Shown here one piece after another: positions 13,223 to 46,735 of a stretch of DNA of 64,000 bases. The translations under genes and the position numbers were made by a program. This stretch comes from Protoeuglena noctilucae. Lineage: Eukaryota. Below the pieces are notes generated by a model, which saw nothing but the letters and a program-made list of their open reading frames with translations, did not search any database and was not told the origin of the DNA. Where the stretch lies: assembly GCA_958009085.1 (NCBI GenBank), contig OY253677.1, positions 558,001-622,000 of the forward strand, written 5' to 3'. Each line of letters starts with the position of its first letter. Positions within the stretch are counted from its first letter, which is position 1.

Positions 13223-16200
13223 ATGGGTCTCCGATGTCGACTCCGACGGTGCGTGATTGTGCGTGATTGCCCGGTGCACGCGCTCCTCCTGCCGCCTGGA
13301 TGGTGCCGCGACGAGCGGGCGCGGCGAGCCGATCGCGTTGCCGTCGTGGTTGGGCGGGAGGCAGCGCACATCTGGACTCCTTGCAGCGCAGCTGGGGCGC
13401 GCCGGCTGGCCCGACATCCGCATCTGTTCGCACCATGCAGCCGTATTGCTTTCCGTTGCCCAGTGGAAGCGCTCGGTGGCCCGTCAGGTGTCCGGGCGGC
13501 TCATCCTGTCCAATGCCCTCCCGCAGCTTCCGACGTCGTGGAGAGCGAGCTGCAACTGGGCTACCTGCCTCCACCTGACGGTCATGATTTTGCCGCTGCG
13601 GTGCGGCACTGGCACGCGGCGGGCGTGGAGGCGGGGCTGTTCCAGGATGGGGCACCGGGGGTGCCGACGCTCCTGCTCGAGCGCGACAGGCTGCGGCGCG
13701 CGCGGCTTTCTGGAAGCCGCAGTAGGAGCAGGAGCCGCAGTCGGGGGCGCAGCCGGAGCGAAAGCGTGCCCCGCCGCGGAGGGGAGGAGCCCGCGACCCA
13801 ACCACGCGTGGACGAAGGGCTTGACGAGGAGGGCGCGCAGCAGGGCGAGGAAAGTCCCAGTCGAAGGGCTTTCCCCAGCGAAGAGCAGGCGAAGGGACCA
13901 TCGCTGCCGACGGCTCCGGAGCCCCAGACGTGGCCAGCCAAGGCGAGCCCGTGCGCGACCTGCGGCACGTGTCGCGCTGACCTATGTGCCCTGCTGTCGG
14001 CAACGTGGCGACACAGGAGCAGGAGCTCTCGTTTCGCAGGTCCAGGCCTCGCGGATGACGTTTCGCAGGCGCCTCGCCCAGCTCGTGGTGGACCTCACGC
14101 TCAAGGGGTGGGACCTCCGCATGGACACGCGCTTGAAGATTGCCATCCCCATGGCGGTCATGTGAGCTCGCCGGCCTCATGCAGCGCGTTGGGCTTGCGG
14201 CGATCCCCTCAGGCGCTCCCAGCACGCGATGCGGGCCTCGGACCTGCTACCTGTGACCGTTGCTGCTGCCCTGTGACATGGGGTGAGGGGCGAAGGTCAG
14301 CATTCATAAAGCCCGCCGACACCCCCCCATGCAGGGTCGTGTTTGGCCTCGTGAGCAACACGCGCGCCCACGCTGACCAGTTCCACTGCGACGACCTGAG
14401 GTCCCGCAGGCTGTGGGTCACGGCCGGGAGCGTGTCGTGCGAGGTGGCCTCGCGCATCAACATCGCGTGGATGTGCTTCCACACCAGCATGGACGTGGCC
14501 CGGCTGGTGCTGGCCCTCTTCCCGCAGACGCTCCCGCTCGCCATCCGGTGGCAGCCGTGGCTCACGGTCCTGCAGTTCATGGTGGTGTCGTACTACCACG
14601 GCATCGGCATCATGACGGGCCTCTTCACGCTCCTCATCCCCATGAAGCCCCCTCCCCAGTTCGACAACAAGTCGAGCGCCATCGTCTTCCAGTGGTGCGC
14701 CAGCCTGGTCATGATGGCCATCGGGTGCACCCTCTGGATCAACACGGGCATCCATATCTCCCCGTGGGTCGAGTGGGGCATGGCTTTCCTCACGGGCCTT
14801 CCCTACTGCGTCTCCCTATTCTGGTTCTGTTCCGTCATCCCTTCCTACCTCGACAGGCTCCCGGCAAACTTCCAGACCTGCTCCGACATCGACTACGCGG
14901 GCGCGGCCAGCGCTGCAATCATCTACCCTGCCACCTACCTCATCTTTTCCAAAATCTTCCACGGAGGCGTCGTCTCCGAAGTCAACACGGTAACGGCGGC
15001 GCCACGGCTTGAGGCATGTGCTTCTAGGCGGCTGGCGGAGGTGGCTTGGCGGCAGACCCACGCGTGGCGACCGCCCCTGTGCTGCAGCCGAACAACGGCC
15101 CGGTCGACAAGGCCGAGGGCCTCTACAAGGCGGCGTTCGGCATCGTTCTCTGCGCCGTCTTCTACGTGGTTGGCATGCTCATGGCCATGTACACACTCCT
15201 CCTGCCACCCGAGGGGCGGAACCTGACGCTGGCGGAGAGCATCATTCTATCCCCCTTCGCTCGGAGCCTCTTCATCGTCGTGGCCGCCCCCATGGCGTCC
15301 ATGGTGATGCGCAGCGCCACGCAGATATCGCAGTTCTCGCGGGATTTGATCCTCGGCGAGATCCTTCCCAAGGATGCCGCGCTGGCGGTGCTGGGCAACG
15401 TCACGCGGGCGGAACTGGCGGGCAAGAAGGGCTCGGAGTCCGATTCGGCCACGACCAGCGGCGCCGAGACCAACCGCGTGCGCCAAGTGTCAATAGACGG
15501 ACGTGAGCGCGAGGGTGTGGGCAGAAGTTCGGGACTCTGACTGGACTACACGGGGAGCACTGGATGCATAAACGAGATTCGGCGTGCCTGCTTGCAGGGC
15601 AACAGTACGCGGCGGTGCGGTACATGAAGCAGGTCGGCCGCGTGGCGGCGGTGGCCGTGGACGTGCCCGAGCTGTCGCGGCTGCTGGCGACACACGACGT
15701 GGCGGCTTGCGTGGACCTGGCGCACAAGGTGGACGTGCTGGTGGACGCCATCCTGGACCGCAGCCGCGCGCGGCGCATCGAGTCGGGGTCGCCGTCGATG
15801 GTGCTGGCGGTGGTGAACGCGGAGGGGGGGGTGGCGGACCCGGAGGAGAAGGGGCTGGTGAGGGGCGATGGGCGTGGGTGCGGGCTGGGGGTGGCAGTGG
15901 CAGGCAGGCTTGGGATGGGCAGTCCGCGAGGTGGCCAGTGATACGCTTGGATTGCCATGGATGCTGCTGTTCCACCGCATGACAGCTGGCCCGCGCCCTC
16001 GCGCCGCAGATCATCGCGGAGGCGCTGCACCTGGGTCTGCTGGACCTGTCGAGCGACCCGTCGTCGGCGAGCCTGCTGTCGCAGTCGCGGACGCTGCGGT
16101 GCCGCGCGGCGGTGGCGTCGTGCGACGCGGCGGTGGTGGTGACGGGGGTGAAGCGGCCCAACCTGCGGGTGCTGGGCCCGATCCAGGCCGTGCAGGGCAT

Positions 16201-16580
16201 CCTGGGGACCGTCACGCCAGGTGCGGGACACAGCGGGGGTGTCGTTGGCGGGGCGGGGATCGCGCAGCTGCCTGTGCCAGCGCGCAGCAGGCCATCGCCC
16301 AGCGCAAGGGTGCTGGAGCGCAATGCACCCCCGCAGGCCAGCTGTGCGTGTCGGCGCGGGCGTTCAAGATGCTGGGGGCGGACATCAAGGCGATGGCCAT
16401 GCCGCAGTCGGTGTTCTCGAAGGCCAAGCGATCGGAGACGGTGTACACGCTGCCGCTGGCGCAGGGGCCCACGGAGCCCACCGTCGCCAAGGTCGTACTG
16501 GCCCGCTCCATGAGCGGTAGCTTCGCAACGTCGTCTCAGCAGACGACATCGCGCATCCGTGTCCTCCCGCCGATGCATTA
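13223..16580 (+). CDS. Multi-pass membrane protein with a C-terminal degenerate class III adenylate/guanylate cyclase-like domain; start uncertain
   Basis: About 8-9 hydrophobic helices (14130-15310), then DLILGEILPKDAA (cyclase helical domain), VAVDVPELSRL, LRCRAAVASCDAAVVVTGVKRPNLRVLG, PGQLCVSARAFKML and KAKRSETVYTL, colinear with the cyclase consensus. Confidence 0.65.
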
Positions 16581-16762
16581 GTTCTGAGGGACTGGAAGCA
16601 TTCTGGTCTCTCTGACGTTTGTGTAGCGCCACTAGCGCCTGTTGTGTTCCCATTGCGAAGCAGTCGCAAAACTCCCGTAATACTCTGTGATTTTGCCTGC
16701 TTTAAAGCGTGCTGAAACGGTCCACCGAAGTCCGCCTCGCTTTTTTATCACCAGCGCACTCA

Positions 16763-17325
16763 ATGGCGCGGTCAGCGGCGGGCAAGGCCCTTCACGAAGA
16801 GCTCCAGTCGAAGCTTGAGGAGTCCGGCGTGCTGGACCAGCTGAGCCAGCAGCTCCACGCGAGGCTGGTGGACTGTGGGTGGAAGGAGGTGTGTTCCTGG
16901 CGCGCTCCCGGATCTGTGCGGAGATTTGCTGGCGCACGTGCATAGTTCGTTGCTTTATCCACAGCAGATAGGTGCCCTTCCGCCCGCCAGGGGCGCCTTG
17001 ACGCTGCATCCTGCCGTCCTGTCCCCAGTCGATCAAGAACCGCTGTCGCGAGCTCATTAAGGCCAAGGGATTGTCAAAAGTCACCGTGGTAGACCTTGTG
17101 CAAGAAGTTACGCCCGCTGGGCGGGCTAGCGTGCCGCAAGCCATCAAGGCAAGTGCCGGGCACGCGCCAAGGTGCCTCGCAGCCCTGCAGCCGCGTCAGG
17201 CACGCGATCGATACCCCCTCGGAAGAGCCATGCACCTGCTGACGCCATCGCAGGCGGAGCTTCTGCAGCAGGTGAAGGCGGCGATCGAGTCGGCGCAGCA
17301 GCCCAAGGGCGAACCGCGTTCCTGA
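16763..17325 (+). CDS. ENY2: Transcription and mRNA export factor ENY2/Sus1, 3 exons
   Basis: KLEESG...[24 protein letters not shown]...[31 protein letters not shown]. Intron 17149-17253 is GC-AG. Confidence 0.92.
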
Positions 17326-17407
17326 AACGATGCGACGCCCCTGACCTCCGCGCGACACCGCGAAACGATCTTCATCGACCCACGCGTGCGACGGGGCCGG
17401 CGGGACG

Positions 17408-20400
17408 ATGGCGCTCGCGCTGCAGGGGCCCGCGGGGCCAGGTTCGTCGTACCTGCGCGTGGCCGACGGCCCGTGCGCCTTCCCTTCCCCGACTCCCGAC
17501 GCTGCGGTGCCCTGGGATGACGCTGCGGGGCTCATTCTGGTTCTCCACGCGGGCCTCTCGTTCCTCCGCGCGTTCCGGGGCCCAGAAACTCCGTGGCCAT
17601 CCCGGCCTGCCCACGCATCTTTGCCCAGGCCCCCTAAGCCCTCGAAAGCTGCAGCGAGCGAGCGCCGGCATGGGCCCTCGCCTTCGCTTGACGACGCGGG
17701 CGGGGCCGCGAGTGCCGCAGAGGACGCGGGTGCCGGGCCAAGCTCAGCGGGCGTGAGTGCGCCTGGCACGGGCATGGAGGGAGCGGGGGTGGATGAAGCT
17801 GCGTCCGACGAGACAGCGCCGGTATTTTCCCTCTTGCTCGAGCCGGAGGCTCGCTTGGCGCCCACCGCAGCACAGCAGGCGACGCGACGGGTGTCGGGTG
17901 AGATGAGGTGCCATGGCATGGGGCGCGTGGTGCTGTGTCGCTCGCATCATTGCCCGGTACATTACATCATCGTTACGCGGAAACGGTCTCATGTGTGTTT
18001 GTCACCCTGCAGATGGCGACAGCAGCGCGTCAAGCACGGCAACCCTGGTTCGCCCACCCCTGTCAGGCATCGCCGTCAGCCGCACCCACGCACTCGTCGC
18101 GGTCTCCCGAACGGGCTCTCTTCACGTGGAAGTCCTCGTTAGGTCGCAGGGCCGTGCCATGCCCCGTGCGCGCATCACGATGCCTTGCGAGGGGGGCACG
18201 GTGTCACCTCAGCGCACGGGTACTGCAGCTGCACCGACGGTCCAGGCCATGTGCTGGGGTGGCGGCGGCGACTTGTGCATCGTGGCGGCGGAGGACATCG
18301 CCATGTACAGGTGCGGGGCGGGGTGGGTAGGGCGGGGTGAAATTGGGCGGGATGCGTGGTGCGGGGTGAGGCGGGGTGGGGTTCGGTGGGGTAGTGCAGC
18401 ATGGGCCATGCTGTTATCGTCACTGGTGATTGCCGTCCACCACAGTGACCTGGCGACCCCATCTGACAAGGCATGCGACTTTGGATGCTATCACCGCCCC
18501 CTGTTGCCCTCCACAGGATCGAGCACAGCCCGGTGGGTGTCGCCAAGCTGTGGGGCTTCAGAGAGAGAGTCCCATGGTGCAGAGTCTCGCATGCAGCAGG
18601 CGTGGTGTTCTTGGGATCATCGGCACACGCACCGGAGGGGAGGGGGGCCGAGGCGCGGGCGACGGGGGCGAGAGGTCAAGGGCACGTACGGGCCTTGGCT
18701 GTGATGCCGCATGGTGAGTGGGTGGGGTTAGTAACGCTGCATGTCTGTGTCTCAGTGCTCGCAGCGTCGTCTTTTCTCCCCGCCACTCTCACCCCGCCAC
18801 TATTGTCGCCCCGCCACTATCGTCGCCCCGCCCGCAGCCGCCCGGTGCCTCCACCCTCATAGACCAGCCTCCTCCGACGCGCGCCCCGTCCCCGCCACCA
18901 TCCCCCTCTCGCACGCCCTGTCAGGCATCACACCGAGCCCTGCTGGTGGAGATCCGCGTGACTCTACACACGCCACCGGTTACAACGGACACCACCGCAA
19001 CGGCTCCGTGTCTCTGCAAGAGCAGCCCAGTGGGGTTGGCAGCAACGATGATGGCCTGGAGCGCGGTATAAGCCTCGGCCTCACCTTCAGCGCCAACCTG
19101 GTGCCACCCGCAATGCCAGCAGTGCAGGCAATGCCAGCAACCACCTCGCCGCTCAGCCCGAGCCTGGGGTTGGACACCACGGCGCTTGCTTCGGAACCAA
19201 TGCCTCAGTCTGGGCATCAACCATGGCCCCAGCCATTTGCGTACCACGCGGGCCCGTCCCATGCCTCCCCGCCGCTGTTGGGCGATGCCGGTGCGGTGGA
19301 GGTGGCCCCGGGCATGCGCCTGCTCGCTGTCGAGGCCCACGTACGCCGCGGCTCCGTGTGCATGGCGTGCGTGGTGGATCGGGGCTCGCACGGGGTGTTC
19401 CTGACCACTTTCGACGCCTGGCAGGGCAAGGTGCAGTGCACGGGCGTCGTGCGACTGGACCCGCACCTCCCAAAGCAGCCTGGTACGCGCGGGGACTCTG
19501 CGGTGGGGCGCATTGCGTCTCCCCGGGTGGCTGCCTCACCGGTACAGCCTGCTGTGGCAGATGCCGCTGCAGCACTGGGCGATGCCCCAACACAGCAGGC
19601 CTCCACAGACCCTGTGCTGTCGGTAGCGCTCGTCTCAGCAGACCCCGTCTCAGGAGAGCCCGTCACGGCACTGCCCGTCTCAGCACAGAGAGATGCCCAG
19701 CCGCCCCGCAGCCCGGCCCCCTCGCGTGGCCCCGCCCGCACTTCCTTCAGTGCTGCCCCCGCTGCACTCGGCGCCCCGGGTGCCCCTCGATCCAAGCCCT
19801 CGTTAGAGCACTGGCTGGACATCGGGGCGTCGCCAGGCACACCGGATGGGGCCCGCGCACGCACGCCCTCCCTCAGCCGCCCCGCCACGCCCACCATCGA
19901 CACCCCCGTGCTGCACCTGCCGCCCACGCCGGACCCCGCCTGGGCCCCCGGGGCCTCGGATCTCTTCCCAAATGGGCCAGGGGCAGTCACGGGCCTCGAC
20001 AGCAGAGAGCTGGTGGGGACCGTCACAGGCGCTGCCCACACCCAGACCCCTGCATCAACTCTGCCACGTGCATCGGACCCCTCGCTGCGCCTGCGCGCCA
20101 GTCTGACCTTCCTGGACGGCCTGGTCGTCCTGGTCATGTCGCAGCCGGGCAATGCACCCGGACTCGTGATGGTGAGCGTGCTTGGGTGTCTGCCTGGGAC
20201 GAGCCACGGCCAACCAGGCCCCACTCTCTCACCAACAAACCCAAATGGGTTAGAATTTCCAAATGCTAAGTCGACCCTGCTCTCTGCCCTCCTTCACTCC
20301 TCCTCTTACTCCCTTGTCCCTCGCAGCTGTTCGACGACGGTGTGGCGCCCTCCCAGCTCCTCTGCGCCCCGCAGCCAGCGCTCCTATCCCTCCCCCGCCC

Positions 20401-23400
20401 ATCAGTTCTTAAATCAAGCTTAATAGAGGCGATGAAGAAGGACTCACGGCCATTGGTGCTGGGATCAGAGTCGCTGCCATTCGCGATGTCGCCGTCGGGC
20501 GCGGTGCTGTGCCCTGTGGCGGGGGTGGCGGCGCGCGTGTGCCTGGACCTGCGGGGGGTGTGGGGCGCCACGAGGTCCACGGCGGAGGCAGCTGGTGAGA
20601 GATAGTAAGGGATGAGCTGATTGGCAACAGTGCCAGAGGTAGCTTACCTACACCAGTGCCCTTTACCACCCCACTGACGCCCCATTCTCCCTCTACCCCG
20701 CAGGCTTCCTCCTGCGCCGCTCGCAGCCACTCCCGAGCCCAGCACTGCCACCCTCCGGCGCCGAACCCCACTCCCCTGCCCCGCCTCGCGTCGCTCATGA
20801 AACTCAGGACGGCCAAGCAGAGGTGTCGGGAGCTTTGGATTCAATCGTGGCCCGCGAAGCAACGGTGAATGGAATGGGAGACGAGGGGTTGGCGGCGAGG
20901 GGTGGCGGTGACAGGGGCTGGGCGGTGAACGGGGGTGGCGAGGAGGGTGGCGTGGCGGTGGGGGGCGAGTGGGGCTGGGTGGGGAGCATGGAGCATGACA
21001 CGCCTCGTGGGTTGCTGGTGACGATGCTGAGAGACATGCTGCAGAGGAGAGAGGGCATGGTGAGGGGTTGGAGGAGGTGGGGTGGGGTGGGGTGCGGGTG
21101 TCTTGGGCGAGTAGAGAGGTGGGGACTGGCCCATTTGCGAGTTATCAATCGGACCTCGTCAGGCGACCTCGTCAATCCCCCATGCCTCATACCAACCACT
21201 GACTGACTCGATTGCTAACATTGCCACCATCGCAACACTCCCCACCTCCCACCCCTCCCCCTCACCCCCCCCACCACAGGCCTCCCTGTCCCGCGTGTAC
21301 CGCCAGATCTGCAACGCGGCCAACTGGGCCCGCGACCACGCATCGCTGCTGGGGGCGGCCACGGTGCCCGTAGTCACGCCCGAGGAGATGCTCAGGGAGG
21401 TGTTCCAGTGGGTGCGGGCCCAGAGTGCCAGCCCATGGGTGAGAGGAGAGTGGGGGCTATGTAGAACATCAAGCATATCTGGCATATGTAGCATGCATAG
21501 CATATGTGCATGTTTGGAGTGTTCCAGTGGGTGCGGGCCCAGAGTGCCAGCCCATGGGTGAGAGGAGAGTGTAGTGGTGGAGCATGCTAACTAGGAGTTC
21601 TCCTACATTACCTCGGTTGCCACATGTTGACTCAGATGCCCTTCGTCCCTCCACCCCTTCACGTCCTCTGCCCGCAGTCCCACGGCGGCACGGCCATGCC
21701 GGTGGGATTGGTGTCCGGTGCCCCCGCCAGCCCCGCATCGGCGGCGAATGGCGTTATCTCTGACACCGCGGGGGTGCACGTGCGGGTGCATGACAGGACG
21801 TGGGTGCGGGAGGTGAGGGGTGGCATTGGGGGATGAGGGATGAGGGTGGGGGTGGGGTGCGTGAGGGGGTGTGGGTGCGGTTCCCCCCTTCTCATGACTG
21901 CATGACTGCGTTGCTCATTGCAACACAATGTCCTCACCCCCGCACCACTTCCCATGACTGCATTGGTCACTGTCCAGCTCTTACCCCCACCCCCACCCCT
22001 CCCCCCCCCTCTCCAGGCCAGCGCCCCCCCCACGGCCGCCCTGACATTGGAGGAGCGTGCAAGCAACTACCTCGCCTCTGCTCTATTGTCGTGGATCCAT
22101 GCTTGCCAGGTTTCAAGCATTCCCGTGTCCCCATCGATGGCCGTGGAGGCGGTCGAGCTGATGGCCCGGGGGGGGGGAGCAGGGGGCGGGGCAGGTGAAT
22201 GAAGGGAGGGGAGATGTACAGTATTTGATAATAACCAAATATTAATAATACTTACGTTTAGAAGTGTTGAGAGAAGTGGAGCTGATGGCCAGGGGGGGGA
22301 GCAGGGGGCGGGGCAGGTGAGGGTTGAGATGGGTGTGTGTGTGCGTGAATGGTTGGAGACTGTTAGAGTTGTAAGATGGGGAGGGTGATCGTGAAAGGTT
22401 TTGTAGCAAAGCGAGGCTGTGTCGATACCTCGATGCATAGCTCTCAGCAACCCCGTACCCTTTCACTCGTTTTCGCACCCTCAGATCCCCGCGCTCGTCT
22501 CTGCGGGCGGCGTCATGGCCCATCGCGCAGTGGCAGACTGCCTGATGGACCTGTGTCAGTCGGGGGCGTACCCGGCGGGGGCGGCTGTGGCAGCGCCGCT
22601 CTTCCACAGGTGTGAGGGGGGTGGGCGTTGTAATGGAATGTTTATGTTTATGTGTTACATGCACAGCCTTGTGCAGCATCGCTCATGCGCAGTTGAGACT
22701 GAGGTTGGCGAATGGTGGTCTATGCCTGTGCTTGCAACCTGTCCCACCATGCCAAGTGTTCGTAAGTATGCTTATGACATCAGTATTGACATGGATCGTA
22801 TAAACCAATAAACCATCGCCTATCTCCAACCCCCCCCCCCCCCCCCCACCTGGGCCAACACGCCAGGTGCTCACAATATGTTCATCATATGCTTATGCTG
22901 TTATGATAGCTATTTTATTGTCCCCCCCCCGCAGCCTGGGCCACCACGCCAGGTGTTGCGTGGCGCTGATCGCGGACGGCGATGTGTTGGGGGCGCTGAG
23001 GTACGCACGGCAGTGGGGAGTCACGACCGTGCCGCCCGAAGCGTATCTCAAGGTGGGAAATGCTCATTCATCTATATCTATGTATGGATATTGATGATAA
23101 AGGGATCGATCACTTTATTTATGTATGCCCCTGCCTGTCCCCCATCCCTCTACACCCCTCGCAGCCATGCTCCTTGCAACCCCACCAGTCCCATTGCCCC
23201 CCCTAACCACATCCATTGCAACCCCATCGATCCTCATCTTCCCCTCACGCCCCACATGCACAGGCCATCGACGGCATCTCTGACCCCATGACCCGCGCCT
23301 CCGTCCAGCGTTTCTTCGCCGACCATCTGCGGGGATCGGACGCCGCTGTGGGGCGACTGTGGGCGGCCGTGTCTGCTCCCACGCGCATGCCACCACGCAA

Positions 23401-23419
23401 CCCCATGGCCAGGCCGTGA
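17408..23419 (+). CDS. RMC1: Regulator of MON1-CCZ1 complex (RMC1/Mic1)-like, multi-exon
   Basis: N-terminal WDDAAGLILVL; C-terminal Mic1-like helices NYLASALLSWIHAC..IPVSP..VELMAR and LIADGDVLGALRYAR. Long low-complexity insertions. Confidence 0.65.
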
Positions 23420-23592
23420 CACGTAGCCTTGGCACAGACTGGCTGTTGCCAGTTATACACTGACACTTGTGTTCGTTGTTCATGTAGTACACACACTAGT
23501 GACGACGGACGCCTTGAAACCGGTGACAGCGACACGAGCGAGTCATGTTACGCGTATTCAAATGCCGATGGCAACACATTGCAAGTGACTAG

Positions 23593-26258
23593 TCACAACT
23601 TCCCACGACAACAAACGCACCACACCCACCCCCACGATCCCTCGCCCCTCAACCCCGCAGCCGCTTCTTCCTTCCCCCCACATCGCCCGCTCGCACATTC
23701 GCAACCCCACCACCCTCCCCACCATCCACCAAACCATCTCTCCTCGCACCCCCCGCTCCGCACCCCACCCCTGCCCCTCTCCCTCTCCCCGTCCCTCACC
23801 CCCGCTTCCCGCTTTGCCTTGCTAGAGCTGCCCAGTCTCTTGTCACCCTCCCTACCACCGCCACTGTCATGGGTCTTATCACCCCCACTGTCACCCCCCA
23901 TGTCACCACTCACGCCACCCGCCTCCCCACCCCCACGGCCCTTCCTCTTGCCACCCTTCACAGCCCTTATCACCTCACCACCCTCTTTGGCACCACCGCC
24001 CCTTTTAGCCACCCCCTCGCTCTCACCACCCCCCTTTGCACCACCACCACCGCCACCCTTACTCGCCACCTTAGCACCCCCCTCACCGCCACCCCGCTGC
24101 GCACTCTCCACCCCCTTCTTCCGCCCCTCCCCACCCCCCCTCTTGCCCCGCTTCACCCCACTCACGCTCTCAGCCAACGCCTCCACCACCGCCTCCGTCC
24201 ACTCCCTTGCATTCATCCCCGCTGCACCCTCCTTATTAGAAATGCCAGATTTGCTTGGATCGCCATGACTGTTCGAATCGCCACGACTGCTTGCAACGCC
24301 AGTGACCTGCCACCCCGCCAGTTTGTGGGCGTAGGATGCGACGGTCGATGCGGCGTCCATGGCTGCCTTGTAGAGGGACTGGGCTTGGATCTGAGAGGGG
24401 AGATGGGGTGGGTGGTGGGTGGTGGTGAGGTGAGGGGTATTGAAGACTGGGCCTGGATCTGAGAACAGAGGAAGGGTGGCGAAGGGTGGCGGATGATGGG
24501 TGAGTGCGAACGTGTCGTTTTTGTCCACACCATGTCACAGGACAAAGCAACGGATGCGCATCCCCTCACACATCACTCGCCTCGTTGTTGGCTGTGTCGC
24601 ATCCATGCACATTACTATGACAAGCAATCATAGCAGTAGATGCGCATCCATCATGCATCACTCGCCTCGTTGTTGGCGGTGAGTCCGTGGATGGTCAGGA
24701 AGTGCCCCACCAGCCGAGACAGGAAGGACCGGCATGCAGAAGGGAGGTCGCCTGCGATGTATGGAAACACACAATCCAATGTACACAATCCACAATGTGC
24801 ACAATCCAATGTAGGTGATCAGACAAGTTACATGACTATGTGACATAGTATGATATTGCAACCAAACCCCGCCAATTTTTCGTTCAACATACCCATTCAT
24901 CCAACTCCCCCAATGCCCCTCACCCGTGGCCGCCTCGTCGGACATGTGCAGGATAGCGTGGTTGCACACCATCTGCTGGTACGCTCTTGGCGATGCGAGG
25001 ACGCGGCAGAGGGGGCAGGCGAACACGGCACGGTCCATAACGCATCGACGATGGGTGAGGTTGACAGTGAAGAGGGCCAGGGGTCGGAGGGCAGAGTCGG
25101 GGTCCTCTGTGAAGGGGTAAAGGAGAGAGAGAGGGAGTGTTGTGAGGGGGGAGTGTTGTGAGAGTAGGGGAGTGTTGTGAGAGTGGGGGTGTGAGGGGGA
25201 GGGGGGGTGAGGGGGTATAGAAGAGAAGGGGGGGTGTGGGAGGGCGGGTGGCAGCGCAGTGAGGGGCCTCACCGCACCTCCACCCCTACCCGCACCTCCA
25301 CCCCTACCCGCACCCCACCATTGCTACCCGCACCTCCACCCCTACCCGCACCCCACCACTGCTACCCGCACCCCACTGCTACCCGCACCCCACCACTGCT
25401 ACCCGCACCCCCCTGCTACCCCCGCCCCACCACTGCCACTCACATCCCACCTAACCCCCCCCTCACCCGTCCCAGGCTCGTTGGTTGCGATGGGGAGGTC
25501 GTGGATGCGCACGCCCAGGCGCAGAGAGCCATCACGACCGCAGATGCCTGGGGGGGATAGCGTGGACAGTATTATTTATCATGTTAGGGATTGGGGTAGA
25601 CAGTAATGGTCAGGGTCAAGTCTTATAACACGATCACCGAAACTCCACCCACCCATCAGGCGTCGCTCACCGCATCGCCCGGGGGTCCCGGGTTCGAATC
25701 TCTCCAGCAAAAGCTTGCGGAGGAGCTTCACGGCCTGAGGGCCCTTCGCCTTGGGACGCAGCACCGGGTCCGGGTCGCCGCCGCCTGCAGAGAAGATCAG
25801 AAGATGAGGGGCATGGGTCGCATCTCACTGCGCACGCTTTGTCGGCCCTGTGTGAGCTCTCAATAATAATCGTCTCGCCCTGACTGGCCCCCCAGCGCAG
25901 CATGCTGCACTTGCCTAGCATATGCGCAGTGGCCCACACGGACCCTTCCCCCATATCCGCGTGCAGCATGTTGGGGCAGAGGCCAGGACACAGCTCCCGC
26001 ACGCGCCCCGCCAGCTCGTCCCACGCATCGGTCGCCGCGCTCTCCGGCCATATCCTGTGCGCGTAGATGCAATAAAAGAATGCGATGCGAGAGCGGCAAG
26101 ACGGCGGGAGCGCGCGCGGGGGCGCGGGGGCGCGGAGAGAGAGCCGAGGCTGCAGGGCGCGTTTGCGACGCCGCTGCGCACCGCCGGGGGTCCTTGGCTG
26201 CGTCATCGGGATCGTAGAATCGCACTTCTACATGCCGCGCCGGCTCATCGTCCGCCAT
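23593..26258 (-). CDS. Hypothetical protein with a divergent HNH-like zinc-binding (CxxC...CxxC) domain and Gly/Lys-rich tail, multi-exon
   Basis: Phase-consistent exons give KLLRKLL...RC|GICG...ACPLCRVL...LVGHFLTIHG...AAMDAASTVASYAHKLAGWQV. GC donors at 25914 and 24665. Confidence 0.5.
25274..25430. repeat. Degenerate intronic minisatellite, ~18-20 bp unit
   Basis: Tandem units CACCTCCACCCCTACCCG and CACCCCACCACTGCTACCCG read directly from the sequence. Confidence 0.8.
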
Positions 26259-41520: not shown

Positions 41521-42617
41521 ATATGGAGCACATTGCTCCTTTGGGGGACACCTCACGTCGAATACTGGTTGCAGCGCAACTAGGTGGGCCAGAGTCGGAG
41601 GAGCTGCCTCGTGAAAGCAGGCGGCCGCTCGATCAAATCTTTGGCCGGACCCATTTTTCATGTTTTTTTCCGGGGCCAGCCCGCGGTTTAACATGGCGCT
41701 TAATATGGCCAGGAGCCGTGGCCTCCGAGGTGCTGGTGGCGTCGTGGTGCGGGCGGCTGTGGGGCACGCGCTGGGAGCGGCTGCTGCACCTTCGCTTGGA
41801 CGACACGACGTCGGCCAAGGACCCCGTCAAAAGGGTAATAATCCAGGTTTGCAAGGCGCTGGAAGGGCTGGGCGTGCCCGGCGCGCCTGTGCCTCCCCGT
41901 GCCAATGCCAGCCGTGTGGTGCTTGAGGGCGTAGCTGAGCAGCTCGTGGGTATCCTGATTGTATGGGACCCTTGGCAGGGCCTGGTTCTGTCCCCTGCGG
42001 CCTGCGGCTCCCTCCCTGCTCACCTCCGCTCCCTTGCCGCAGGCCAGGTTCCCCCCCGGCAAGGGCGGAGCACGCGCTGGCGGCTTACTGCGCGCAGCAG
42101 GACTCTCAACTCCTCCCCCGTCCTTCCCGCCCCCAGGCCGCGCCGGTCGCTGTGCGCCCTGCCCCCGAGCCCGCGTGGTGGGCGGAGCTCAACCTGCCCC
42201 TTGTCAACCCCTCCACGCAGTGGGTCCTCGAGCCTCATCGGCGCCCCACTGAAGTGCCCGTCCCCATTCCGCTTAAGCAGTACTCGGTCGGACATGCGGT
42301 GGGGGTGGCCTTCGACCGGGCCACCATCACCTCGCGGCTCGGCCGCAAGGTGGAGCAGTGGTCCCGGGCCGGGGCGCTCGGGGAGGCCCAGGACGGGCCG
42401 GACGGGGTCACGGCGGCGGGCATGCATGCCGCTCTCAAGACCATCAACGCTCTCCCCCTGTCTCCGCAGATGCACGAGGCGCTGTGGCTGACGCTGGCCG
42501 ACGCGCGCGCCACCGCATCGCACTGCTACTGGCTCGACCTCACCACGTGCCCCCTCCTCCGCAGGGACGGCGAGCAGTGCTCCCACGAGGACACGGTCGC
42601 TCACGCCTTCTGGGCCT
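41427..42617. repeat. Left arm of a 1191-bp inverted duplication (right arm 45758-46948)
   Basis: Mirror-image ORFs in the track (41963+ / 46412-, 42604- / 45771+); one substitution noticed. Confidence 0.95.
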
Positions 42618-43115
42618 CATCTGGCGCCGCAGGTCGCAGCTGCGGGAGAACTGGCACTGATTCTCCCCGTGAACACCTGCAGGCCTCTATGCTCACCTGG
42701 GCGCCATCGTGGCGGCCGAGGTCCAGGACACACTGGCTGTCACGGAATTAGAGCGCCTGGCCGCACTGCTGGGCAAGCAGGGTCCTGACAGGCTCGTCCT
42801 CGCCCGCGCCGATGGCAGCAGGTTCATGCGGGTGGTCTCCCTGCGGCTGCGTGAGCGGGGCAGGTAGGTGCGAGGCAGGTGCTTGTGAGCGGACACATGT
42901 CGCCCTCTGCACCTTGGCCCAGCTGCGCCTGTCACTGGTTGCCAGGGGGCATGGCAGAGTACCGCGGCAAGGTGCGCCACACCGGGGCCGCCGGATGGCA
43001 GTCCTGTTATGGGGTGGGTAGCCTGCTCGCGCGTGCGCGGGACGTGGTAAGTACCGCACATCTCAATACTCTTTGGATGGGCTGCAGTCCAAGGTCGCCA
43101 GCCCTCCAGGGTCCA
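41963..43115 (+). mobile_element. 5'-truncated, internally deleted LINE-like ORF2 3' fragment plus downstream region
   Basis: Zinc knuckle C..C..EDTVAHAFW broken at 42617; a diverged continuation matches the reverse complement of ~45030-45610. Confidence 0.7.
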
Positions 43116-44288: not shown

Positions 44289-46735
44289 GATGATGATGAG
44301 CGATTCAACAGTCGAGGTGTGCTATGACTCTCAGAGCCATGCCTTGCGGAAGAAGTGCCGTCCCCCGGGGCAGCTGGCACCCCGGGGAGGCGGGCACGGG
44401 CGGGGACCGCTGGAACAAATCCAAGGAAGCAGGTCTCGGGGGCATGAACAGCAAGGGTCGACGTCCCGGGCCCACGAGCCAGAGACGCATCTGTGCGCCA
44501 TGTTGAGCTGCGGGCTGCCCCCGGAAAAAAAATAAAAAATCGGAGCCCGACATGTCAGCACCTGGTGCCAGACGCGGGTGCCGCTCACTTCTCTGGACAC
44601 CAACCGTGCCCCGTGAGGAACCACGATCTCGAGCTCGTCATTTCCCGCCGCGGGTGCCGGGCACAGGGGGGCGAACCCCCCCCACTGGCCCCTTGGGAAC
44701 CACACTCCCAGAGTGCGCGGGGGCTTCGCAAAGCGTCCCGGGGGCGGCAGCGTCGTTAGGCCACCTGAACGCGTGCGGTGAAGGCAGCGGCAGCCCCAAG
44801 GGACTGGGGGGACCGGATCTCGGGGACCTGGGTCCCCCGCTCTGTCCCACAAGGGGGCGCCAAAGCCGTACCAACACTCCGAACATGACGTGAAACCCTC
44901 GGCCACCGCCCCCGACTCTGCTAGGCCCCCGCCCGCCAGCGCCCGCCCGAGTTTTCCTTGCGGGCACCCCGGAACGAGCACCGACGGGCAATAACAACTG
45001 TCCCTAGAGACCGAAGCCGGACTTTGGGCCCAGGAGGGCCGGCGACCTTGAACTCCTGCACGTCCAAGAAGCACCGAAAGAACATGTGCAGACTCACCAC
45101 GTCCCGCACATGCGCGAGCAGGCCACCCACACCATGACAGGAGTGCCATCCAGCAGACCCGGTGGGGCGCACCTTGCCGTGGCAGCCTATCACGCCCCCC
45201 GCCAGCAGAAGCTGCACAGCTGCGCCATGACAGAGCGATGCATGCAGAGGGCGCCATGGGATACGCTGGCGAGCCCTCACCTGTTGCGGCCTCACCTGGG
45301 ACTTACCTACGCGGCGGCTGCCACCGCCCCTGGGACACCCTCCCACGCGGACCTGCCATGCGGACCCTCACGGCAGGTCACGCGGCAGCCGGGAAGCCTC
45401 CCCACTCGAACCTGCCGCCATCTGCATGGGCGCGGACGAGCCGGTCCCCCCGCTCCCCCAGCAGAGCAGCAAGGCGCCCTGCCCCAGTGACAGCCAGAGT
45501 GTCTTGGACCTCGGCTGCCACGATGGCGCCAAGCTGGGCATAGAGGCCTGCGGGCGTCGACGGGGAGCGCCAGTTCTCCCAAAGCTCTTGGCGGCGCCTC
45601 CAGATGAGCTTGAAAGCCGCGCCCACGATGAGCGCCCACGAATACTGCGAGAAGTTGCTGGAGGGAGGGGGAACTAGGAGGAACACCGCCCGTGCCGAGA
45701 GGGCCGGGGCCCGCGCGGCCGCCTTAACCGCCTCCCACACCTCCTGGGCCCTGTCACAGGCCCAGAAGGCGTGAGCGACCGTGTCCTCGTGGGAGCACTG
45801 CTCGCCGTCCCTGCGGAGGAGGGGGCACGTGGTGAGGTCGAGCCAGTAGCAGTGCGATGCGGTGGCGCGCGCGTCGGCCAGCGTCAGCCACAGCGCCTCG
45901 TGCATCTGCGGAGACAGGGGGAGAGCGTTGATGGTCTTGAGAGCGGCATGCATGCCCGCCGCCGTGACCCCGTCCGGCCCGTCCTGGGCCTCCCCGAGCG
46001 CCCCGGCCCGGGACCACTGCTCCACCTTGCGGCCGAGCCGCGAGGTGATGGTGGCCCGGTCGAAGGCCACCCCCACCGCATGTCCGACCGAGTACTGCTT
46101 AAGCGGAATGGGGACGGGCACTTCAGTGGGGCGCCGATGAGGCTCGAGGACCCACTGCGTGGAGGGGTTGACAAGGGGCAGGTTGAGCTCCGCCCACCAC
46201 GCGGGCTCGGGGGCAGGGCGCACAGCGACCGGCGCGGCCTGGGGGCGGGAAGGACGGGGGAGGAGTTGAGAGTCCTGCTGCGCGCAGTAAGCCGCCAGCG
46301 CGTGCTCCGCCCTTGCCGGGGGGGAACCTGGCCTGCGGCAAGGGAGCGGAGGTGAGCAGGGAGGGAGCCGCAGGCCGCAGGGGACAGAACCAGGCCCTGC
46401 CAAGGGTCCCATACAATCAGGATACCCACGAGCTGCTCAGCTACGCCCTCAAGCACCACACGGCTGGCATTGGCACGGGGAGGCACAGGCGCGCCGGGCA
46501 CGCCCAGCCCTTCCAGCGCCTTGCAAACCTGGATTATTACCCTTTTGACGGGGTCCTTGGCCGACGTCGTGTCGTCCAAGCGAAGGTGCAGCAGCCGCTC
46601 CCAGCGCGTGCCCCACAGCCGCCCGCACCACGACGCCACCAGCACCTCGGAGGCCACGGCTCCTGGCCATATTAAGCGCCATGTTAAACCGCGGGCTGGC
46701 CCCGGAAAAAAACATGAAAAATGGGTCCGGCCAAA
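44289..46735 (-). mobile_element. Non-LTR retrotransposon (L1/Tx1-like) fragment with zf-RVT CCHC domain (ORF 46412-45378)
   Basis: CPLLRRDGEQCSHEDTVAHAFWACDRAQEVW...KLIWRRR fits the C-terminal zinc knuckle of L1-type ORF2. No RT or endonuclease domain is present. Confidence 0.75.

Follow-up and report, generated by a model that had tools for sequence, protein, structure and literature searches.

Can two genes that lie only 82 nt apart on the same strand of an alga be served by a single mRNA? This question is raised by a locus of Protoeuglena noctilucae (contig OY253677.1), for which an initial annotation had proposed that ENY2 and an RMC1-like gene form a bicistronic unit. ENY2 is a subunit of SAGA and TREX-2 and acts in mRNA export, and RMC1/MIC1 is a partner of the MON1-CCZ1 Rab7 exchange factor in endosome trafficking. 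All coordinates are positions in the window, i.e. the whole stretch of 64,000 nt that was analysed, and all features discussed are on the forward strand. Our analysis indicates that ENY2 and the downstream reading frame (ORF2) most likely share one mRNA.

Layout of the locus

ENY2 is encoded by three exons, which yield an ORF of 318 nt and a product of 105 aa. Exon 1 (16763..16888) and exon 2 (17029..17148) match PF10163 (E 5e-7 and 2e-7, respectively), and exon 3 (17254..17325) ends with the TGA stop; all three are contained in an RNA contig. The first intron (16889..17028, GT-AG) corresponds to RNA joint 16886-17027 (cut +2). The second (17149..17253, GC-AG, 105 nt; RNA joint 17146-17252) is in frame, stop-free and carries one ATG (17230). 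The spliced protein reaches 86.8 bits against Pfam EnY2 (cut-off 27; profile 2-82 of 83), which confirms the identity of the gene, and PF10163 matches nothing in the whole genome assembly except the two ENY2 exons of this locus. Identity to chlorophycean and Micromonas ENY2 is only 35-44%, and in the ENY2 tree the P. noctilucae sequence forms a long unplaced branch. RbcS of this organism is nuclear and intron-bearing and is located on two contigs, which supports only the assignment "green alga"; a PDB search with a ribosomal protein gave no information on its placement.

The 5' leader (16700..16762) comprises at least 63 nt without ATG, beginning at the start of the RNA contig, which is not to be equated with the TSS. 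As annotated, the spliced ENY2 coding sequence contains no ATG past its start codon. A run of 315 nt lacking ATG is present in 56 of 1263 CDS windows (4.4%), and among 241 predicted genes 5 begin with such a run. The ATG absence is a modest signal against chance and partly a trait of the family, since the core lacks Met in 51 of 148 ENY2 homologues.

The ENY2 stop at 17325 and the downstream ATG at 17408 on the same strand were correctly placed. ORF2 (17408..23419) consists of 12 exons (17408-17897, 18013-18310, 18517-18713, 18838-20171, 20327-20594, 20704-21059, 21280-21438, 21678-21812, 22017-22194, 22485-22609, 22935-23052 and 23264-23419); nine of its 11 introns are RNA joints and two are inferred. 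As read in RNA, the product has 1270 aa. A G run (22168..22177) is one base longer than in the RNA contig of run X2 and, as assembled, shifts the frame before the C-terminal domain; the extra G is an assembly slip or an allele.

Judged by sequence similarity, ORF2 is a probable, highly diverged RMC1/MIC1. A profile built from RMC1 of the Micromonas type and of Haematococcus matched residues 832-1027 (E 5e-5, 13.4 bits; best of 200 shuffles 7.0), and the N-terminus resembles RMC1 of M. pusilla along 50 aa (30%, E 0.023). In the RMC1_C family test (PF21029 and PF07035), one exon of 39 codons aligned to profile positions 182-220 of 248 with 12.8-14.6 bits, which is below the cut-off of 26.9 in this single-exon scan and counts against our main reading. 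RMC1_N was not matched in the Pfam scan of single ORF2 exons. The Haematococcus RMC1 piece alone gave nothing significant against ORF2, the homologue search with the C-terminal exon none among 17 candidates, and the ESM Atlas, searched with one ORF2 exon, only matches under 0.9 and no lead. An RMC1 family search of the genome assembly yielded no match anywhere, with controls that were equally silent.

RNA contigs across both reading frames

Record 12 of RNA run X2 (3219 nt, depth 20.2) joins 16700-16886, 17027-17146, 17252-17896, 18012-18306 and 18837-20170. Both ENY2 introns and the ORF2 introns are out and the spacer is in; spliced ENY2 was found on a 3235-nt contig. The X2 depth in the bins of 16920-17527 (7.99 and 18.4) is explained by record 12 alone (7.97 and 18.3), and therefore no contig of intron 2 and no side contig is seen. 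The transcript that ends with ORF2 has its poly(A) site at 23532, marked by an A-run loose end in X2, and none of the 16 loose ends listed is a poly(A) end in the vicinity of the spacer. These RNA data are short-read contigs, and a contig across two genes is not the same as a single transcript molecule. It also weighs against our reading that the junction is crossed in spliced form by only one contig of one study, in one of four RNA runs. Run X1 crosses the spacer unspliced, with its record 3, which is DNA or pre-mRNA, starting at 17239 within ENY2 intron 2; X5 and X10 have no cover there.

The gene upstream of ENY2 encodes a separate multi-exon membrane protein without Pfam match over the cut-off, and its stop codon (16579..16581) lies 181 nt before ENY2. 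At its 3' end (16701..16716, run X1), TTTAAA, a one-letter variant of TTGAA, lies ∼15 nt upstream of a loose end with poly(A) that follows 16716. Because the upstream gene has its own poly(A) end, a tricistron was rejected. This end (~16716) overlaps the start of the ENY2 contig (16700), and since transcript ends overlap in this way, assembly could merge overlapping mRNAs, a further point against the main reading. The same overlap limits the claim that there is little room for a 3' UTR and a promoter between ENY2 and ORF2: the gap is indeed short, but its shortness alone is a weak argument, since transcript ends overlap within 181 nt one gene upstream. Our gene finder predicted gaps of at most 100 nt in two of 51 tandem pairs (median 456 nt), and both look like split gene models. 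Other short tandem gaps were dismissed as bicistrons; of the 14 pairs with at most 200 nt, several clearly represent a single gene that was split, and every ORF1 has 2-26 internal ATGs. For the pair 54293/54764, the gap is intronic and belongs to a sortilin-like gene.

Polyadenylation signals

The spacer between ENY2 and ORF2 (17326..17407, 82 nt) contains neither TGTAA nor TTGAA. That TGTAA is absent, as the initial annotation had argued, is correct, but the argument is empty as evidence, because this genome shows no enrichment of the motif (134 copies vs 125 expected in 264 kb; 18 vs 17.8 in 3' flanks) and ∼98% of random 82-nt stretches lack it, so that its absence is not beyond chance. From the motif counts, P. 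noctilucae appears to use TTGAA (UUGAA) as 3'-end signal instead of UGUAA. TTGAA is present in 89 of 196 3' flanks (18.7 when shuffled) and shows a strand bias, with 24 sense vs 7 antisense copies in tandem flanks and 54 sense vs 261 antisense copies in CDS. UUGAA or TTGAA as an algal poly(A) signal was not found in the searchable literature.

With TTGAA the no-signal argument survives, whereas its UGUAA version had no power. On the plus strand no copy follows ORF1 (none in 16300-23513) and one follows ORF2, at 23514..23518. It is the only sense copy in 16300-24400, precedes the poly(A) site by 18 nt and is the probable poly(A) signal of a two-ORF mRNA. Against this stands that only 27 of 52 tandem genes have TTGAA within 400 nt, that the upstream gene uses a variant, and that the ENY2 stop itself reads CTGAA (17322), again a one-letter variant.

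Start contexts and access to ORF2

ENY2 and ORF2 each have their own start and stop and are out of frame; a read-through fusion was ruled out because the spacer shifts the frame by one base. An IRES-like or otherwise special spacer structure was rejected as well, folding being no stronger than in shuffles (z -0.09, 0.82 and 0.65; -0.09 for the spacer of the window). Among 210 predicted starts, a reference set from our own noisy gene finder, the ENY2 start (TCA-ATG-G) is at the 38th percentile and the ORF2 start (ACG-ATG-G) at the 92nd. The former has A at -1, G at +4 and T at -3, the rarest base at that position (13%). The ENY2 context had been called weak, which holds in the sense of middling under this noisy model, and the ORF2 start is strong as described. 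Such an order of start contexts, together with an AUG-free ORF1, seems to match the profile of leaky-scanning bicistrons, in which the ORF1 start is weaker than that of ORF2 (Duenas 2025; PMC11892635).

Beyond the ENY2 start, one AUG is met in the 463 nt before ORF2. It opens a mini-ORF of four codons (17330..17344), which begins 4 nt past the ENY2 stop and ends 63 nt before ORF2. The caveat that this mini-ORF could affect initiation at ORF2 was valid: its AUG (ACG-ATG-C) shares the -3..-1 context of ORF2 and is at the 84th percentile. Thus the mini-ORF AUG is not weak and the ENY2 start is only middling, and both points speak against the main reading.

With fair confidence we propose that one promoter drives a capped and spliced mRNA of ∼4.4 kb, which encodes ENY2 (105 aa) and a diverged RMC1/MIC1 (1270 aa), has one poly(A) site and allows access to ORF2 of the leaky-scanning type. 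The promoter would lie ahead of ENY2, and the single mRNA would end 18 nt past TTGAA. Most ribosomes would make ENY2, while a fraction would pass over its AUG, which has a short leader and, with T at -3, a middling context, and would meet no AUG within the ENY2 coding sequence. These ribosomes would bypass the mini-ORF AUG, or translate the four codons and reinitiate 63 nt further on, and start ORF2 at its strong AUG. Output of ORF2 would be low, and the mini-ORF may damp it further. We infer leaky scanning from this arrangement. Since ENY2 and RMC1 are not known to share a pathway, ENY2 probably serves as a coding uORF that has become entrenched and determines the dosage of RMC1.

It is unlikely that ORF2 on a bicistronic mRNA is reached mainly by termination and reinitiation, through the AUG 4 nt past the ENY2 stop, translation of four codons and rescanning to 17408. 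The position of this AUG, its good context and the 63 nt left before ORF2 would suit such a route, and spacer mini-ORFs that end ahead of the ORF2 AUG also exist in the metagenome loci L101, L085 and L089, at distances of 8 nt in L085 and 1 nt in L089. However, no AUG is present in the spacer of L082 or of L083. The L085 mini-ORF starts and ends like that of the window, a resemblance which may be taken as chance, yet the peptide of L089, from the same 90% cluster, differs from it, and a conserved mini-peptide was therefore rejected. Reinitiation after an ORF of 105 codons is inefficient. It correlates negatively with uORF length, and mutational tests of green-algal bicistrons at other loci favoured leaky scanning, although reinitiation was not fully discounted (Duenas 2025).

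Conservation of the gene pair

The ENY2-MIC1 pair is already published in tables of Gallaher 2021 (PMC7896298). Sheet "C. zofingiensis full" of Dataset S1 lists Cz05g03235 (EnY2) followed by Cz05g03230 (MIC1, PTHR12897), 155 nt apart, as fully polycistronic. Dataset S4 records the pair as colinear in C. reinhardtii (IsoSeq; Cre08.g370300/Cre08.g370250), D. salina and V. carteri (EST), with Volvox ENY2 unannotated and a blank Micromonas pusilla entry; related tables are Datasets S1, S4, S5 and S7. Text searches for literature on bicistronic ENY2 in algae matched no paper, and the pair was not found in the supplements of Duenas 2025. There, Cre08.g370250 is counted among the monocistronic genes, and the C. 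reinhardtii pair is in none of the searchable curated (exclusive) polycistron lists, which again counts against our main reading. Three ATGs lie in the spacer of the Chromochloris pair, so that a bicistron is compatible with AUGs between its reading frames.

Of 20 metagenome loci, 8 have RMC1 behind ENY2 on the same strand. These include exact matches to ENY2 of M. pusilla CCMP1545 (EEH55815; the neighbour cluster holds EEH55816) and of M. commoda (ACO65771), and the synteny that was to be checked in other chlorophytes is present in both species. Locus L101 was not counted, its downstream ORF being only weakly RMC1-like (E 0.006) and without profile match. In Haematococcus, a gene model fuses ENY2 with RMC1_N; a Pfam scan of 48 longer ENY2 homologues revealed no further merged model. 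The colinearity in M. pusilla, M. commoda and P. noctilucae is new here. Because Chlorophyceae, Micromonas and P. noctilucae share the linkage, it probably dates to early Chlorophyta. The bicistronic reading of the locus is supported by the spliced RNA contig over both ORFs, the polycistronic orthologous pair of Chromochloris and the colinear genes of Micromonas.

It is improbable that the locus is only partly polycistronic, with a short ENY2-only mRNA, cut near the stop-codon variant of the signal or further down, alongside the long two-ORF mRNA. CTGAA at 17322 could serve as signal, about half of the tandem genes having no exact motif, a short branch with poly(A) would be trimmed off in contig assembly, and the ENY2 stop upstream of 11 exon junctions would be an NMD-prone layout; moreover, the pair of C. 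reinhardtii carries an IsoSeq note yet is absent from the curated exclusive lists. Against a short mRNA, 3' flanks show no excess of CTGAA (20 sense vs 22 antisense copies), none of the 16 loose ends listed is a poly(A) end close to the spacer, X2 has no extra contig over ENY2, and Dataset S1 gives the pair of Chromochloris as fully polycistronic. Two independent overlapping transcripts, fused by short-read assembly only, with the ENY2 3' UTR reaching into ORF2 and the ORF2 promoter in ENY2 intron 2 or exon 3, are very unlikely: the end overlap one gene upstream, the X1 contig beginning in intron 2 and Micromonas spacers of 189-197 nt, which would be ordinary intergenic lengths for compact genomes, are outweighed by the missing X2 cover of intron 2, the missing signal for an ENY2 3' end, a smallest predicted divergent (two-promoter) gap of 276 nt, the long-read and EST support in four Chlorophyceae in the tables of Gallaher 2021, and a gene neighbour and order that agree between classes, which would be difficult to account for if no transcript were shared.

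For the shared two-ORF mRNA, we tentatively consider, at somewhat less than even chance, that ENY2-RMC1 is among the oldest eukaryotic bicistrons. One such mRNA would stem from the ancestor of Mamiellophyceae and core chlorophytes and would have been kept in Micromonas, where the published survey overlooked it, and in the deep, fast-evolving P. noctilucae while UGUAA gave way to an undescribed UUGAA as 3'-end code; loss of linkage in one picoalgal clade would coincide with the return of AUG in ENY2, and spacer uORFs would have arisen repeatedly as RMC1 dampers.

The locus confirms a known phenomenon and a known gene pair, and its value is comparative. ENY2-RMC1, recorded only for Chlorophyceae, now reaches Micromonas and a further lineage, and is a candidate marker for the age and stability of algal bicistrons, with the clade that lost the linkage as natural control. 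The locus draws attention to UUGAA as a probable poly(A) signal, and bicistron screens based on UGUAA fail outside UGUAA-using algae. Gene finders drop ENY2 or fuse it with RMC1: our own finder dropped it, the Haematococcus model is merged and Volvox ENY2 is unannotated.

Comparison with known bicistrons

The Chromochloris pair Cz05g03235/Cz05g03230, as tabulated by Gallaher 2021, has the same families, order and strand as the P. noctilucae locus, and its ORFs are also out of frame. It differs in spacer length (155 vs 82 nt), ORF1 (327 vs 318 nt) and number of spacer AUGs (three vs one). ORF2 comprises 793 codons in Chromochloris, whereas the P. noctilucae product has 1270 aa with large insertions; the 3' signal is UGUAA there and apparently TTGAA here, and Iso-Seq reads contrast with a short-read contig.

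Compared to the leaky-scanning bicistrons of Duenas 2025, with medians of 357 and 291 nt for ORF1, 183 and 40 nt for the spacer and 83 and 54 nt for the leader, the locus has 318, 82 and at least 63 nt. It shares with them an ORF1 start weaker than that of ORF2 and AUG-poor sequence ahead of ORF2, while its internal AUG is well placed in context and theirs are weak on average. CDC26-TTM3 of plants and green algae (Duenas 2025) likewise combines a tiny conserved complex subunit with a larger, functionally distant protein downstream, is deeply conserved, and has an upstream stop that makes the mRNA NMD-prone. CDC26-TTM3 spans land plants, while ENY2-RMC1 was compared here in algae, and ENY2 differs in being a spliced ORF of three exons.

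Structure of the ENY2 locus

The initial annotation had placed ENY2 immediately upstream of an RMC1-like gene, and the sequence bears out this anatomy. ENY2 (16763–17325, + strand) comprises three exons encoding 105 aa, its stop at 17325 is followed by a spacer of 82 nt on the same strand that contains a four-codon mini-ORF (17330–17344, +), and the second ORF (ORF2) starts with the ATG at 17408 in a frame different from that of ENY2. Pfam EnY2 matches exons 1 and 2 (86.8 bits for the spliced protein), and a family search of the whole genome (26.3 Mb, 27 contigs) returned solely these exons. Since its RbcS genes are nuclear and intron-bearing, the genome is that of a green alga. A folding check found no unusual fold in the spacer. 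Predicted tandem gaps have a median of 456 nt and are ≤100 nt in 2 of 51 cases, several of the short ones being split gene models of our simple gene finder. This finder was trained on 864 kb of the genome; its output is noisy, with ENY2 overlooked and ORF2 drawn wrongly in part. Intron 2 of ENY2 (17149–17253, +) is a GC–AG intron with a GC donor, 105 nt long, in frame and stop-free; its retention is predicted to yield a 140-aa ENY2 and an extra AUG ahead of ORF2. Yeast SUS1 is regulated also via non-canonical introns. Elsewhere in the window, two predicted genes (41905–42867, +; 45378–46470, −) share an identical N-terminal 80 aa and form an inverted duplication.

ORF2 is probably a diverged, insertion-rich RMC1/MIC1, as judged from similarity. 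A profile built from Micromonas-type and Haematococcus RMC1 sequences matches residues 832–1027 (E 5e-5), scoring above each of 200 shuffled sequences and above the reversed one, the N-terminus aligns with M. pusilla RMC1 (E 0.023), and RMC1_C weakly matches one late exon at the expected place (E 0.023–0.08, below cut-off). The Pfam search of single exons gave no RMC1_N match, the Haematococcus RMC1 piece alone as query did not match ORF2, and further identity searches (family search of the genome, homologue search, ESM Atlas) were blank. Nine of the 11 introns are RNA joints among those listed and two are inferred, one of them fitting the length of an RNA contig. At the G run 22168–22177 the assembly is one base longer than the RNA contig, which shifts the reading frame of ORF2 upstream of the C-terminal domain; this is probably a homopolymer error in the assembly, or else an allele. 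With the RNA reading, the frame of ORF2 stays open over 1270 aa.

Proposed translation of ORF2

Most likely, ENY2 and ORF2 would be carried on one capped bicistronic mRNA, with ORF2 expressed via leaky scanning. ENY2 would be translated from the first AUG, while a minority of scanning ribosomes would leak past it, traverse the AUG-free ENY2 CDS, skip the mini-ORF or translate it briefly, and then initiate on ORF2. We infer all of these translation steps from the start contexts and from the mechanism described in the literature. Among 210 predicted starts, ENY2 ranks at the 38th percentile and ORF2 at the 92nd. AUG depletion in ENY2 is only modest, because 56 of 1263 CDS windows of 315 nt are also ATG-free and 51 of 148 homologues have no Met in their core (2 of 150 were left out because of gaps). 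Termination and reinitiation through the mini-ORF, whose start context lies at the 84th percentile, could also deliver ribosomes to ORF2; mutation of such bicistronic loci, as reported in Duenas 2025 (PMC11892635), shows that they work mainly via leaky scanning, and we consider reinitiation unlikely here.

Transcripts and 3′-end signals

RNA evidence on 15400–24500 consists of assembled contigs from 4 of 13 runs, of which X1 and X2 cover the ENY2–ORF2 junction and X5 and X10 do not; figures for joints, loose ends and pieces rest on those listed, besides which there are 2, 29 and 155 more, respectively. An X2 contig of 3219 nt begins at 16700; it has both ENY2 introns removed, retains the spacer and extends past 20170 over ORF2 exons that are likewise spliced. 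At the contig level this shows transcript continuity across the spacer. For the two bins over the spacer and ENY2 intron 2, X2 depth is no different from that expected of this contig alone. A second X2 contig spans the 3′ exons and ends with an A run behind 23532. X1 contigs still contain introns (DNA or pre-mRNA); one spans the spacer from 17239, and an X1 poly(A) end behind 16716 marks the end of the upstream gene. At this tight junction (16582–16762) the ENY2 leader, which starts at 16700 or further upstream, overlaps the upstream poly(A) site (~16716), and the ENY2 promoter must therefore sit within the last exon or 3′ UTR of the neighbour.

The absence of TGTAA between the genes had been taken as support for cotranscription. 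In derived chlorophytes, Wodniok 2007 (PMC1868727) located UGUAA ~17 nt upstream of cleavage sites, and reported it absent from Pyramimonas. In 264 kb of our genome TGTAA is not enriched (134 observed vs 125 expected), and it precedes neither of the two observed poly(A) sites. The top 5-mer in 196 predicted 3′ flanks is TTGAA (89 flanks vs 18.7 shuffled; TGTAA, 18 vs 17.8), with a sense bias in tandem flanks (24 vs 7 antisense) and depletion in CDS (54 sense vs 261 antisense), and it occurs within 400 nt of only 27 of 52 tandem genes. Its sole sense copy in 16300–24400 (23514–23518) sits 18 nt upstream of the tail of ORF2. In the upstream gene, TTTAAA occurs ~15 nt ahead of the tail. Thus the motif first chosen was wrong for this alga, but replacing it by TTGAA leaves the answer unchanged, namely no intergenic signal. 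These counts make UUGAA the probable poly(A) or 3′-end signal of this alga. A convergent minus-strand gene has its own TTGAA (23557–23561) just past the ORF2 poly(A) site; the two 3′ ends nearly abut (23419–23560).

At the ENY2 stop the sequence is CTGAA, one letter away from TTGAA; this variant shows no enrichment in 3′ flanks (20 sense vs 22 antisense), and we regard it as improbable that the locus is only partly polycistronic. Overlapping neighbours occur in this genome, since the upstream gene end and the ENY2 contig start overlap by ~17 nt, and the spliced spanning evidence is one contig from one study, where a contig over two genes demonstrates no single transcript; that assembly fused two overlapping mRNAs is nevertheless very improbable, given the published C. 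zofingiensis pair, and the conclusion of a candidate bicistronic locus of ENY2 and an RMC1-like gene stands.

Conservation of the gene pair

The ENY2–RMC1 synteny sought in other chlorophytes is present in some of them. We scanned metagenomes with a 12-sequence ENY2 alignment and obtained 20 loci. At 8 of these an RMC1 gene lies next, downstream on the same strand, 7 have other neighbours, L101 is one weak case, and 4 end within 125 nt and are uninformative on the neighbour. The pairs are L082 (51–1055, spacer 189 nt, RMC1_N E 2e-13), L083–L084 (L083:5962–8459, 197 nt, RMC1_N E 2e-5), L085–L088 (L085:674–3838, 93 nt, E 4e-6 for L085) and L089 (4646–5263, 105 nt, profile E 6e-8), where RMC1 profile matches in L082–L088 arise by construction and Pfam matches are independent. 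L082 begins 50 nt ahead of the ENY2 ATG, a cDNA-like start. In L101 (2530–2864), CCCTAAA telomere-like repeats fill an intron or contig end just inside the gene after ENY2.

M. pusilla CCMP1545 EEH55815 has the same ENY2 sequence as L083, whose neighbouring gene falls in a cluster with EEH55816, and M. commoda ACO65771 matches the L089 ENY2 exactly. The order is found in Micromonas pusilla, M. commoda-type and one related alga. Judged by gene order alone, the Micromonas loci are colinear ENY2–RMC1 loci, and two Micromonas-type spacers contain TTGAA. A Haematococcus lacustris model (KAJ9529752.1, 401 aa) merges ENY2 and RMC1_N and probably reflects misannotation of the same locus. In the ENY2 tree the unlinked loci form one clade (100/99) within a Micromonas-containing group (99/98), which suggests that linkage was lost once. 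Five of six linked ENY2 CDSs have no internal ATG (L082 has one, in-frame, at codon 3), whereas all seven unlinked ones have 1–7; this association is only suggestive, as it sets one event against several and partly tracks GC3.

Comparison with known polycistronic loci

ENY2 acts in SAGA and TREX-2, and RMC1 acts with MON1–CCZ1. As we know of no pathway common to both, we favour an entrenched coding uORF over an operon as the interpretation of their link. The phenomenon and the pair are both already in print for Chlorophyceae. The sheet 'C. zofingiensis full' of Gallaher 2021 (PMC7896298) lists Cz05g03235 (EnY2) and then Cz05g03230 (MIC1), 155 nt apart, with ORFs of 327 and 2382 nt and three ATGs in the spacer. 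Its Dataset S4 records the two genes as colinear in C. reinhardtii (IsoSeq), D. salina and V. carteri (EST), the entries for Coccomyxa, Micromonas pusilla and Ostreococcus being blank. Searches of the supplements of Duenas 2025 did not find the pair, and Cre08.g370250 is placed there in monocistronic sheets. Our data extend the pair to Micromonas and to the lineage of this alga. Also new is the probable UUGAA 3′-end signal, of which we found no description as an algal polyadenylation signal in the literature searched; it is a G/U swap of the chlorophyte UGUAA.
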